DNA of 64,000 bases, taken from contig CM000150.2 of NCBI GenBank assembly GCA_000004695.1, positions 2,752,001-2,816,000 of the forward strand, read 5' to 3'. Below the pieces are notes generated by a model that saw only the letters and a list, made by a program, of their open reading frames with translations, did no database searches and was not told the DNA's origin. The DNA is from Dictyostelium discoideum. Taxonomy: Eukaryota. Shown in pieces: positions 39,078 through 43,119 of the stretch. Each line of letters begins with the position of its first letter. The stretch's first letter is position 1. Made by a program: the position numbers and the translations under genes.

Positions 39078-42000
39078 TTAGTTTATTTCTGTTAAAACTT
39101 CAAGGGTGTTAATAATATCTGAATCATGAATTGTGTTTGTGGGGGTATCACCATTATTGTTATTGCTGTTGTTTGAAATATTTAAATTTGTATCACCAGT
39201 ATAATCATCAATTAATGAAGAGTTTGGTCTATGACTTGCAAGTATTGGTGAATGTTGTGGCTGAGAGTTTCTACTTTGTGAAATCCAACCACTATTATTA
39301 TCTGAACTATTATTATTATTACTATTGGTACTTGAAGAGATTGAGTTTCTATCATTATTATTAATACTACTATTATTATTATTAATATTATTATTATTAT
39401 TATTATTATTATTATTATTAAATTGTTTATTTTGATTAAATTTTGAAAAATAATTTAAATTATTAAAATTTGAATTATGTAATAACCAATTACTATGCAT
39501 CCAAGAATCTTTTGATTCAAATCTCATATAACATGATTTCCAAAGTTCTAAGCAACGTGAATATAATTTTGGTCTAATTGATTGAATATCTTGAGGATTA
39601 AAGTATGGATTTAAAAATTTATTAACATTTAAATTAACTTCAGTCCAAATTGAGATTGTTTTGGTTTTAACTTGATTTTGAATTCTATCTTTTTCACAAT
39701 TATTTAAGAAAGTACCATATTTACAACTATGAATATTATCGGAAATGAATAACAATAGAGATGGAGTAAACTCGAAAAGTAATGGAAACTGATTTAATAA
39801 TTGAAAACAACAATCTAAAAATTGTTGAAAAATTGGGGATCTCTCTTCTTCATTACCAGGTAAATGACCAAGACGTAAAGAGAATTTATGGCCAAAACTA
39901 AGCCATTCCTTTTCGATTAATACTTGAAACCCATGAATTGTACGATAGAAAGGGTCCAATAGAATTTGAGTTAATGAAGTGATTTGCGGGGTTCTGTCCC
40001 AACCATCACTACAATGCACCAATATACTATTACCTTTTAGGATTAATTCAGCAGAGAAAGTTGCCGCTTCCAATATTGATTTAATATGTGATATCCAACC
40101 AGTCTCTTCGATGTAGCCCCAAAATCTCATATCAGTGCTCTCGGTATGATCTTTGTCACGAGCTGATGATTTCATTGCCAATACTAATTTCTCTAAACTT
40201 TTTCTAATTACATGAATATTAGGTATATTCATAAATATTAATTTACAATTTGGATAATTATGAATATTTTCAAAGCCTGCACCATTGGCTGTATTTGCAA
40301 TTGCATTTATTTTTGGTCTTGCATCAATTAGATAGAGTGTTTTCGATGGTGAACTTAATGCTAGACTACTACAATAAAATTCGTCCTCTGGACAACGTGC
40401 CCTTTCAATACCAACCAATGGTTGACTACATCTACTAATGGAAGCATTTGAAGATGGATCTTTCCATGACAATGTTGGTATACGACCTTTACTACGAAAT
40501 GAAAATATTTTCTCTAAATCTTTATCAGTTGCTTTGTTTGAGACAACCAATGAACTTGGATAACTTGAACACATTCTATGATCTTTATTGATGTTTGTAA
40601 ATTTCCAACCACTATTTTCACTATCACCATAGATATTAAATCTAGCATATTCTCTTCTTTGATTATAAACTTGCCAACCATCTATACTACTTGTACTTGA
40701 ATTTAAAACATTTGGTTGTGTTGAAAATGATGGTGATGATGTTGATGTTGTTGTTGTTGATGACGATGACGATGATGATGGATTTAAATCTGAAAATCCA
40801 GGTGATTTATATAAAAATGCAAATAAAAATGGTACCATTTCCTCAAAAATACCATAACTTTCATAACGATCAATATGTTCAACTCTTGATTCATCTTGCA
40901 TTTGAATATTCTCTTCAACAATCTTTTTTTGAATATTTTTATTTTGACTTGTTACTTTTATTGATCTTTCAATTTTATCTTTAAAATGATAATTTATTAA
41001 ATCCATTATTTTATCTCTAACATGAATTGACATGAAATATAATTTAAATTGTTTAAAATCTTTAGTTTCAATATTAATTAATTGATAACTCATTGATGAT
41101 GTTGATATTGTATAATTTGATAAATTATTTGATGAAATTGATGTTGTTATATTATTATTATTATTATTATTATTTACAGGTGAACTATTTAAAATTGGTT
41201 GAGATTGTTGTGGTGGTGGTTGTTGTTGTTGTTGTTGTGATAAATTATCTAAAGAAAAATGATAAGATTGAGCTGGTGATAAAGGTGGTGTCGGATTTGG
41301 TGATGAACCACCCAATGATGGATTAACTAAATTTAATGAAGTTTTACTAAAATTAATTATATTATTTAAAATTGATGATGCACTTTGATTAATACTAAAA
41401 TGACCACTTAAATTACTACTATTATTACTATGTACATTTATAATTGATTGTTGATTTAATGATGTTGTTACTGTTGTTGTTGTTGTTATTGTTGGATTTA
41501 TATTTGATTGTTGTTGTTGTTGTTGTTGTTGTTGTTGTTGTTGTTGTTGTTGTTGTTGTTGTTGTTGTTGTTGTTGTTGTTGTTGTTGTTGTTGTTGTTG
41601 TTGTTGTTGTTGTTGTTGTTGTTGTTGTTGTTGTTGTTGTTGTTGTTGACTATTATTACAATTTATTTGATTTGAATTATAGTAACCATTACTATTACTA
41701 TTACTACTACTACTATTATTACTACCAGTACTAGAACCAATCGGATTTATTAAATAATCATCAATTATATTACCACCAGTTGTAATTTCACTTGTAGTAA
41801 AGAAAATATCATTACTATTATTTGTTGGTATTATAATTGTTTCTTTATTTAAACCTGATGATGAATCTAAATCATTACTATTATTAGAACCACCATTTGA
41901 TTGATTATCTCTATCATCATCAGTTCTAACTGTTGATATTGATAACAATGGTATTGATTCTTCCTCATCTTCTAATATTGGAAAATTTATATTTGAACTA

Positions 42001-43119
42001 TTATTACAATTGCTATTATTACTATTACTATTACTACTATTACTATTACTATTACTACTATTACTATTATTTGGTTGATCAAGTTTAAAAACTAATCTAA
42101 AATTTGTTATAAATAATTTACCAGTATATAATTGAGTTGAAGTACCAGTAGTAAAAGAATCACCATTTTGAATAAAGGTTGAAACTGGTTTACCTAAAAA
42201 TACAGCTTTTTCAATCATTAAAATGTTTTCACCAGTTGGTGAAATTCTTTCTGAAAAGAATTGTCTAATCAATGGAAATGGTGAAATTGCTGCCATTTCC
42301 ATTGGTGATGGTAATATTGGTGTTGGTTTACTACAATCTGCTCCATACATTAAAAACAATTCCAATAATTCAACTTTACCTTGTTCAATTGATAAATGTT
42401 GACATGTTCTACCTCTTTTATTAACAATATTTGGATTTGCCCCATGAAATAATAATAATTTTAAGAAATCAAAATTATCATTTAACATTGTTGCCCTATG
42501 TAATGGTGTTTCTTGTTTATTATCTTTATGATTTATATATGCTCCATTTTCAATTATTAATTGAGCTAATTTAATTGATTTATTTGAATAACAATATCTT
42601 AATGAAAATATATATATATATATTAGTATATTAAAATAATAATAATAATAATAATAATAATAATAATAATAATAATAATAATAATAATAATAATAATAAT
42701 AATAATAATAATAATAATAATAATAATAATAAGATATTGTATATATATATGTATATTTACTTTGTTAATAAATGTAATGGAGTTAAACCATTTTCAGTTC
42801 TTGCATTTGGATCAGCACCTCTTGATAATAATTTTGTAGCAATTTCAAATGCACCTTGATTTACAGCATAATGTAATGGTGTATAACCATCAATATCTCT
42901 ATGGTCTACTTCAATTGAGGTGTCTTTTAAAAATCCATATTTTTTTTTAAAAAAGAATTTTAATGCAAACATATTATCATTCATCGCGATTAAATGTAAT
43001 AATGTTTGACCTTTACTATTCCTTTTGGTTGATAAATCACCCCTTTTCAAAAATTCTTTAAATACATTTTTATCTTGAGATCTTGATATATGTTCTAATG
43101 TTTGATCATTTGTTGACAT
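39078..43119 (-). CDS. Myotubularin-related phosphoinositide 3-phosphatase with N-terminal ankyrin repeats and a GRAM domain. Exons 42761..43119 and 39078..42597.
   Basis: The catalytic loop VHCSDGWDRTPQITSL is the CX5R motif of active myotubularins. GKLFITNFRLVFKL is GRAM-like. Ankyrin repeats (GYTPLHYAVNQGAFEIATKLLSRGADPNARTENGLTPLHLLTK|YCYSNKSIKLAQLIIENGAYINHKDNKQETPLHRA...) span the intron, which runs from GTAAAT at 42760..42755 to TTCATTAAG ending 42598 in phase 2. (TTG)n at 41509-41647 encodes about 46 consecutive Gln. Confidence 0.75.
41509..41647. repeat. (TTG)n/(CAA)n array translated as poly-Gln in the myotubularin gene.
   Basis: It is a pure 46-unit triplet array, in frame within exon 2. 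Confidence 0.9.
42645..42731. repeat. (AAT)n microsatellite inside the myotubularin intron.
   Basis: It is a pure trinucleotide array of about 29 units flanked by (AT)n. Confidence 0.9.

Follow-up and report, generated by a model that had tools for sequence, protein, structure and literature searches.

Does the locus examined here encode ankyrin repeats, a GRAM domain, and a myotubularin phosphatase in a single polypeptide, or does it combine two separate genes? The locus lies on the minus strand of a 64,000-nucleotide stretch of DNA (the whole of which we call the window), and an earlier note, made from the sequence alone, had proposed that all three modules belong to one protein. Our analysis supports that proposal and identifies the gene, with a probability of about 0.88, as the ortholog of Mtm6 (DDB_G0269272) of Dictyostelium discoideum. 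On sequence evidence, it would be a two-exon gene whose 1292-aa product is an active-type phosphoinositide 3-phosphatase of the myotubularin family, with five ankyrin repeats (plus caps), a PH-GRAM domain, and the phosphatase domain in that order.

Structure of the Gene

When exon 1 was joined to exon 2 (junction 42761/42597; Table 1), the coding sequence remained in frame, with one terminal stop, and gave a product of 1292 aa. Both the length of the spliced product and the phase-2 intron (exon 1 having 119 codons plus 2 nt) are thus as anticipated in the earlier note. Exon 1 is further supported by its Pfam ankyrin matches and by an N-terminus that aligns with those of the orthologs, and the open reading frame (ORF) of exon 2 is colinear with the dictyostelid orthologs as well. 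The G+C content is ∼22% window-wide, with higher values in the exons and a drop to ∼11% in the intron and the flanking DNA, a pattern typical of Dictyostelium genes.

The intron interrupts the ankyrin domain itself, between TPLHLLTK and YCYSNKSIKLAQLII. Pfam analysis of the spliced product returned Ank at 89.4 bits (E 6.5e-26; cut-off 21.1 bits) and Ank_2 at 91 bits (cut-off 27.3 bits) over residues ∼13–210, and five TPLH-type repeat starts could be recognized, at residues 39, 80, 113, 150, and 184. The earlier note had counted at least three repeats, encoded by exon 1 and the start of exon 2, with one of them split by the intron; five are found, and the split one is repeat 3. Ankyrins and DARPins matched residues ∼64–209 in a sequence search of the PDB and were also among the structural matches, while for the part encoded by exon 2 the Pfam hits, the PDB sequence matches, and the helix pairs in the AlphaFold models agree. 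Tandem repeats of ∼33 residues, scoring above the Pfam cut-offs and modeled as paired helices, place the segment among the ankyrin-repeat proteins.

Orthologs and the Reality of the Fusion

The best homology match of the product was D. discoideum AX4 DDB_G0269272 (XP_645840, 1214 aa; 1543 bits), to which it is 71% identical over 1115 aligned columns; within the phosphatase domain, the figure is 84.6%. When phosphatase domains were ranked by similarity to that of the window protein, those of the Mtm6 group occupied ranks 1–8 of 238. We aligned the window protein with seven orthologs (D. discoideum AX4, P. violaceum, T. lacteum, two Acytostelium paralogs, a JGI contig, and a EukProt model), and all seven were colinear with it from the N-terminus past the exon junction and as far as the phosphatase domain extends. 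Their sequences run through the junction unbroken, as TPLHLL[TSA]K[YF]C..KSIKLA.

The intron itself is shared with Polysphondylium violaceum. In genomic DNA of this species, the annotated gene contains a phase-2 intron of 64 nt that splits the corresponding Lys codon behind its second base (LHLLAK/FCSH), within repeat 3. In AX4, the gene span of 3796 nt for DDB_G0269272 (supplement of PMC2927912), set against a protein of 1214 aa, implies 151 nt of intron, consistent with a single intron of ∼150 nt. Closest relatedness, full-length colinearity, and this common intron all assign the locus to the Mtm6 orthogroup.

At first sight, Cavenderia fasciculata is an exception, being annotated with a 631-aa gene product, DFA_01304, labeled as an ankyrin repeat protein. 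A tblastn search of GL883010.1 (6001–10137) with the window protein nevertheless recovered the ankyrin, GRAM, and phosphatase segments, colinear and on one strand. The C-terminal half of the PH-GRAM domain and the whole phosphatase domain fall at 7849–9345, overlapping both DFA_01304 and the next gene model. DFA_01304 appears to be truncated or mis-split, and the break, judging from the sequence, is not at the ankyrin/GRAM boundary. With this locus included, the comparison indicates that the ankyrin–GRAM–phosphatase architecture is conserved in all four major dictyostelid groups.

These data bear on the proposal that exon 1 stands alone as a small ankyrin gene with a 3′ end of its own, that the myotubularin gene starts in exon 2, and that the fusion is an artifact. 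Such a reading could draw on the stop codon that the unspliced exon-1 frame meets at 42759–42757, directly past the 5′ splice site, and on the ankyrin-only annotation in C. fasciculata. The unspliced product, however, would break off halfway through ankyrin repeat 3; the earliest Met encoded by exon 2 is residue 157, already within repeat 4; and no AATAAA occurs within the intron. All of the orthologs read through the junction, the P. violaceum intron has the same codon and phase, and the C. fasciculata model already holds the N-terminal half of the PH-GRAM domain, with the phosphatase colinear at the locus, so that the apparent exception is an annotation problem. Moreover, a functional GFP fusion was obtained with the AX4 coding sequence, amplified in full from first codon to last (PMC8855053). 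We therefore consider two separate genes highly improbable. Because the split repeat and the alignment cross the junction in every ortholog, the P. violaceum intron interrupts the same codon in the same phase, and the coding segments are colinear in four groups, the ankyrin–myotubularin fusion is, on this comparative evidence, genuine. The claim of one polypeptide is borne out by the colinear orthologs and the P. violaceum intron.

The Phosphatase Domain

The phosphatase domain matched PF06602 (Myotub-related) at 439.1 bits (cut-off 25 bits; E 1.4e-131) over profile positions 5–351 of 352. A PDB sequence search returned MTMR2, MTMR6, MTMR1, and MTMR8 at E values from 1e-104 to 5e-98, the best being MTMR2 (E 1e-104, residues 759–1150), in which the catalytic loop aligned residue by residue. 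Foldseek comparison of the window protein's model gave a template modeling (TM) score of 0.95 with MTMR8 and an E value of 5e-42 with MTMR2.

In an alignment of 47 myotubularins, the window protein included, HCSDGWDRT and about 50 further columns were invariant, and the window protein keeps all of them; the catalytic CSDGWDRT loop, described in the earlier note as intact, is found at residues 982–989. With the PF06602 match, the intact C(X)5R loop, and a PH-GRAM domain N-terminal to the phosphatase, the protein belongs to the myotubularin family. In the myotubularins, the Cys of the CSDGWDR loop attacks the 3-phosphate of phosphatidylinositol 3-phosphate (PI3P) or phosphatidylinositol 3,5-bisphosphate (PI(3,5)P2), while the Arg and the loop backbone hold the phosphate. 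By analogy with the family, Cys982 would be the nucleophile and Arg988, together with the loop backbone, would grip the phosphate. In the alignment with MTMR2, the window protein also retains three residues, Asn in ANxAxG, Asn in NIH, and Arg in LRxGH, whose MTMR2 equivalents we take to be the substrate contacts N330, N355, and R463.

The human proteins MTMR2, MTM1, and MTMR1 (PDB 1zvr, 1lw3, 1zsq, 5gnh, and 5c16) share with the window protein a PH-GRAM domain, the phosphatase core, and an identical CSDGWDRT loop. Unlike them, the window protein has N-terminal ankyrin repeats, two long insertions in the PH-GRAM domain, and an additional helical segment of ∼45 residues. An MTMR2-type C-terminal coiled coil or PDZ-binding motif did not turn up in the window protein, albeit no search was aimed at them.

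The PH-GRAM Domain and Its Loops

The PH-GRAM domain was harder to establish. Pfam analysis of the intact 1292-aa protein gave ankyrin and Myotub-related as the sole significant families and no GRAM match, because two low-complexity loops split the domain: loop 1 (residues ∼297–324) and loop 2 (∼347–624, about 280 aa). With both loops excised, a 151-aa construct matched Pfam GRAM at 20.9 bits (E 3.3e-4) over profile positions 4–103 of 112. Since Pfam gives no match on the intact protein and a match below the cut-off on the excised one, the assignment relies on alignment and models.

In the ortholog alignment, the conserved blocks of the domain are GENILMIEK...GKLFITNFRLVFKLD, EDEEESIPLLSI, and YQLINIETKDFKQFKLYF...VRDKIMDLINYHFK, parted by the two low-complexity insertions. 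Residues G279, T284, F290, and K632 are invariant or nearly so among the 47 myotubularins, in the signature G..T-N-[YF]-R..F, K-D. For structural modeling with AlphaFold, we chose an Acytostelium ortholog because it has the shortest loops (mean predicted local distance difference test score, pLDDT, 75; predicted TM score 0.72). The model consists of stacked ankyrin helices, a beta-sandwich that a long helix closes off, and the phosphatase domain, and Foldseek aligned it with the entire MTMR2 crystal chain (PH-GRAM plus phosphatase) over 636 columns (TM score 0.88, E 6e-41). Mapped from this model, the elements in the window protein are strands at 245–292, 331–346, and 625–641 and a C-terminal helix at 644–683.

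The AlphaFold model of the window's own exon-2 product shows the same PH-GRAM strands and helix at pLDDT ∼80–90. Its Foldseek alignment with MTMR2 was shorter than that of the ortholog model (547 columns, TM score 0.78), which we take as a failure to bridge the loop of ∼280 residues; the full superposition of the domain on MTMR2 thus comes from the Acytostelium model. As judged from the alignment and the models, the PH-GRAM domain is real and interrupted by two loops. The "GRAM-like segment" of the earlier note is upheld in this form, by the loop-excised match (albeit below the cut-off), the AlphaFold models, and Foldseek, while remaining invisible to Pfam in the intact protein.

A strongly conserved segment of ∼45 residues, with the sequences ...NIQKKIVEENI...HIDRYESYGIFEE and ...ESR[IV]EHIDRYESYGIFEE..., separates the PH-GRAM helix from the phosphatase domain and is modeled as an extension of the PH-GRAM helix followed by a second helix. 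The consensus of an animal-dominated myotubularin alignment offers no counterpart to this segment, which is specific to the orthogroup.

Comparison with AX4 Mtm6 and the Polyglutamine Tract

The window protein resembles AX4 Mtm6 in its domain order, its matching N-terminus, and a C-terminal ILASHRP motif. It is 78 aa longer, with a tail extending ∼45 residues beyond the HRP motif, and whereas its loop 1 has 44 residues to the 112 of Mtm6, its loop 2 exceeds that of Mtm6 (291 vs 167). Neither the window protein nor the neighboring F-box/WD40 protein had an exact match in a collection of 15 billion proteins, and we accordingly assign the locus to a Dictyostelium species other than AX4. The motif recurs as [LM]-x-[GA]-[ST]-H-R(-P) in all eight aligned orthologs, within a tail that is of low complexity and otherwise unalignable among them, and could represent a short linear interaction or modification motif. 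The comparison thus provides a map of what is constrained (the ankyrin domain, the PH-GRAM strands, the ∼45-residue helical segment, the phosphatase, and the C-terminal HRP motif) and of what is free to vary (the two PH-GRAM loops and the tail).

Among the variable elements is a glutamine tract in loop 2, present in the window protein and not in AX4 Mtm6. It had been described in the earlier note as a pure run of 46 residues; it is indeed pure, being encoded by a perfect CAA array, but it comprises 47 residues. The long N/S-rich linkers mentioned there are also apparent, the product being 13% Ser and 13% Asn. No Gln run of eight or more residues occurs in the AX4, P. violaceum, or Acytostelium orthologs, and that of T. 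lacteum (Q11) is the sole other run among the orthologs, so that the tract does not occupy a conserved position.

Could the tract be a functional module, for instance one that drives condensation or aggregation or regulates how the PH-GRAM domain binds membranes, rather than a neutral microsatellite? It does sit within a lipid-binding domain, and AlphaFold renders it as a single long helix with pLDDT 70–84. A confident polyglutamine helix is, however, a common AlphaFold output and no evidence of structure. The scarcity of Gln runs among the orthologs argues against a function, as does the length of the host loop, which between the conserved strand motifs ranges from 57 residues (Acytostelium) to 291 (window protein). 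The window moreover contains more than 15 other triplet arrays of 10–65 units. Overall, we find a functional role quite improbable. As (CAA)47 is perfect, with no interrupting codon, the tract is probably a recent, species-specific slippage expansion in a tolerant loop. The polyglutamine and N/S tracts would then be replication-slippage microsatellites, tolerated because they are sited in surface loops of the PH-GRAM domain and in the C-terminal tail. The locus offers an example of such tolerance, with a PH-GRAM surface loop carrying ∼280 residues, the 47 glutamines included, while the long ORF stays intact.

Published Work on Mtm6 and a Possible Mechanism

DDB_G0269272 was in the sequence set of the myotubularin survey by Kerk and Moorhead in 2010, whose text lists ANK among accessory domains possibly mediating protein–protein interaction (PMC2927912). 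A full-text literature search for this gene identifier gave no match, and the link to Mtm6 came only through primers: the published Mtm6 cloning and knockout primers (PMC8855053) translate to residues 1–9, 49–57, 994–1002, and 1204–1214 of DDB_G0269272, which is why we equate the two.

According to that 2022 study, Mtm6-GFP localizes to the leading edge and to macropinocytic cups, is off the membrane in a quintuple phosphoinositide 3-kinase (PI3K) mutant, and is enriched on the membrane in pten-null cells (PMC8855053). On lipid strips, Mtm6 bound phosphatidylinositol 3,4,5-trisphosphate (PIP3) more strongly than phosphatidylinositol 3,4-bisphosphate (PI(3,4)P2); the immunoprecipitated GFP fusion degraded PI(3,5)P2 strongly, and PI3P too; and deletion of mtm6 caused a modest rise in the membrane targeting of the back-protein Teep1 (PMC8855053). 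In the same paper, the legend of Figure S6A, a figure of the domains in the nine Dictyostelium myotubularins, includes the entry "ANK, ankyrin repeat," while the main text contains no discussion of the ankyrin or GRAM domains (PMC8855053). We found no mention of Mtm6 in the literature after this study, and no published experiment on the role of the conserved ankyrin repeats. The gene family is therefore already known, named, and provided with published cell biology, its architecture having been catalogued in 2010 and drawn in 2022; beyond a clean annotation, our finding adds little to this.

Transferred by orthology, these results would suggest the following sequence of events. PIP3 or PI(3,4)P2 made by PI3K would draw the enzyme to macropinocytic cups and the leading edge, where it would remove PI(3,5)P2, and also PI3P, thereby helping to set a back-to-front gradient of PI(3,5)P2 (PMC8855053). 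The PH-GRAM domain may act as the lipid-targeting module, and the ankyrin repeats may dock protein partners and so contribute a further layer of targeting or of regulation of the core.

Two other views of the enzyme deserve consideration. Animals have inactive myotubularins, and Dictyostelium itself has inactive myotubularin domains fused to other modules: in the amoebozoan Pats1/Roco9 IMLRK proteins, as in the window protein, a myotubularin module is joined to other signaling or interaction domains (PMC2927912). It might be supposed, then, that the window protein is a catalytically dead scaffold of this sort. The IMLRK proteins, however, combine an inactive myotubularin with LRR, Roc-COR, and kinase domains (PMC2927912), whereas the window protein has an intact loop and ankyrin repeats as partner; Pfam analysis of the window protein gives no LRR, Roc-COR, or kinase domain. 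Cys982, Arg988, and the whole HCSDGWDRT loop are in place, as are all columns invariant in the 47 myotubularins, and the AX4 ortholog is active in vitro (PMC8855053). A dead scaffold is accordingly a reading to which we give almost no weight.

A closer competitor accepts that the enzyme is active and makes the turnover of endosomal or macropinosomal PI3P its main job, with the PI(3,5)P2 gradient at the leading edge secondary. AX4 Mtm6 degraded PI3P as well, an activity that the authors describe as being of unclear significance; Mtm6 itself was observed on nascent macropinosomes; and the effect of the knockout on Teep1 was modest (PMC8855053). The phosphatase, in addition, has its closest similarity to MTM1, MTMR1, and MTMR2, and both PI3P and PI(3,5)P2 are present in the crystal structures of these. 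Against this, Mtm6 is highly active on PI(3,5)P2, and among the nine Dictyostelium myotubularins it alone is reported to have a polarized, PI3K-dependent localization at the plasma membrane (PMC8855053). The two roles, moreover, are not mutually exclusive. We regard a primarily PI3P-directed function as unlikely, albeit well short of negligible, and favor the PI(3,5)P2-directed Mtm6 ortholog described above.

Some points weigh against this assignment and its functional corollaries. Splicing of the window gene is deduced from comparative evidence, and the Pfam GRAM match stays under the 23.6-bit curated cut-off even with the loops excised. Activity, lipid binding, and localization are known from the AX4 ortholog, 71% identical, by way of an immunoprecipitated GFP fusion and phosphoinositide strips, and extend to the window protein by analogy. 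The reported binding of PIP3 is a property of Mtm6 as a whole, and the phenotype of the mtm6 knockout is modest (PMC8855053).

It is conceivable that the ankyrin domain sets this myotubularin apart among the nine in Dictyostelium, either by binding a protein of the leading edge or cup or by gating the phosphatase through docking on the core formed by the PH-GRAM and catalytic domains; we put this forward as a tentative idea, with the odds rather against it. If it were true, PIP3 binding alone would not account for the polarized localization, and Mtm6 would represent a class of active myotubularins under the control of partners, with an ankyrin platform doing what, in animals, is done by coiled-coil pairing to dead subunits.

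Ankyrin–Myotubularin Proteins outside the Orthogroup

How widespread is the combination? In a word-index homology search with the phosphatase half, ankyrin repeats were absent from all of the 120 best phosphatase-domain relatives listed, mostly metazoan, in keeping with the statement that ankyrin–myotubularin fusions are not the common metazoan architecture. This search omitted the dictyostelid orthologs, although they are 60–85% identical in this region, so the list of 120 is not exhaustive.

A profile built from the orthologs was also searched against 1.84 billion representative sequences. The only proteins that matched most of the profile were dictyostelid, namely those of AX4 and Acytostelium (full length), the C-terminal half of a Synstelium protein, and the N-terminal half of a Cavenderia protein; the remaining high scorers were either giant ankyrin-repeat proteins or myotubularins without ankyrin repeats. 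Local hidden Markov models and Pfam, applied to 400 fetched proteins, yielded three further proteins that, like the window protein, combine ankyrin repeats with a myotubularin domain of the active type in a single chain. They are a Diphylleia rotans transcript (P0276; RhoGEF-PH-Ank-MTM, i.e., with an extra RhoGEF and PH), a metagenomic sequence (P0349; Ank-PH-GRAM-MTM), and a Logan-assembly sequence (P0290; Ank...MTM). When the phosphatase domains of these three were used for ranking, the Mtm6-group members came at ranks 129–234 of 238, with 38–42% identity, no closer than generic myotubularins. The three are probably independent domain combinations, to judge from this comparison.

Other Features of the Window

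Table 1. Positions of the Mtm6 ortholog, its parts, and other features within the window
Feature	Position	Strand	Details
Exon 1	42761–43119	−	359 nt; start codon 43119–43117; 119 codons + 2 nt; residues 1–119 and 2 nt of Lys120 (N-terminal capping helix pair, ankyrin repeats 1 and 2, first helix of repeat 3)
Intron	42598–42760	−	163 nt; phase 2; GT..AG (GTAAAT...TTAAG); 96% A+T, mostly (ATT)32
Exon 2	39078–42597	−	residue 120 (third base) to 1292; TAA stop 39080–39078; uninterrupted ORF
Ankyrin domain, exon-2 part	42312–42597	−	residues 121–215; second helix of repeat 3, repeats 4 and 5
PH-GRAM domain	40908–42224	−	residues 245–683; loop-excised Pfam match, alignment, models, Foldseek
(CAA)47, perfect microsatellite	41508–41648	−	Gln437–Gln483, within PH-GRAM loop 2
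Conserved helical segment	∼40842–40980	−	residues ∼660–705
Myotubularin phosphatase domain	39507–40724	−	Pfam match to residues 745–1091; MTMR2 alignment runs to residue 1150
Catalytic C(X)5R loop CSDGWDRT	39990–40013	−	residues 982–989; Cys982...Arg988
C-terminal motif ILASHRP	39225–39245	−	residues 1238–1244
(ATT)32	42635–42730		in intron
(CAA)22	18406–18471		
(AAT)65	26014–26208		
(ATT)36	34425–34532		
(ATT)39	57671–57787		
F-box/WD40 protein	32673–35444	−	
ALAD/porphobilinogen synthase	36945–37424	+	last exon
F-box-like protein	37906–38655	−	
EF-1alpha	43744–45105	−	453 aa; 625 bp upstream of the mtm start codon
AKAP7-type 2′-5′ RNA-ligase-like protein	46226–46819	−	
Protein with short-chain dehydrogenase domain	47520–50510	−	996 aa

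Several of the triplet microsatellites of the window fall inside long ORFs, where they code for runs of Asn or Gln. A tRNA scan found no tRNA genes in the window.

The EF-1alpha protein encoded next to the Mtm6 ortholog, from the only EF-1alpha ORF in the stretch inspected, is identical to AX4 XP_645839, whereas its neighbor is only 71% identical to the AX4 protein. The two AX4 accessions, XP_645839 and XP_645840, are consecutive, a numbering that suggests adjacent genes in AX4 and hence conserved synteny. The Mtm6 locus of C. fasciculata, too, has a large adh_short-containing neighbor, which may be a remnant of synteny.

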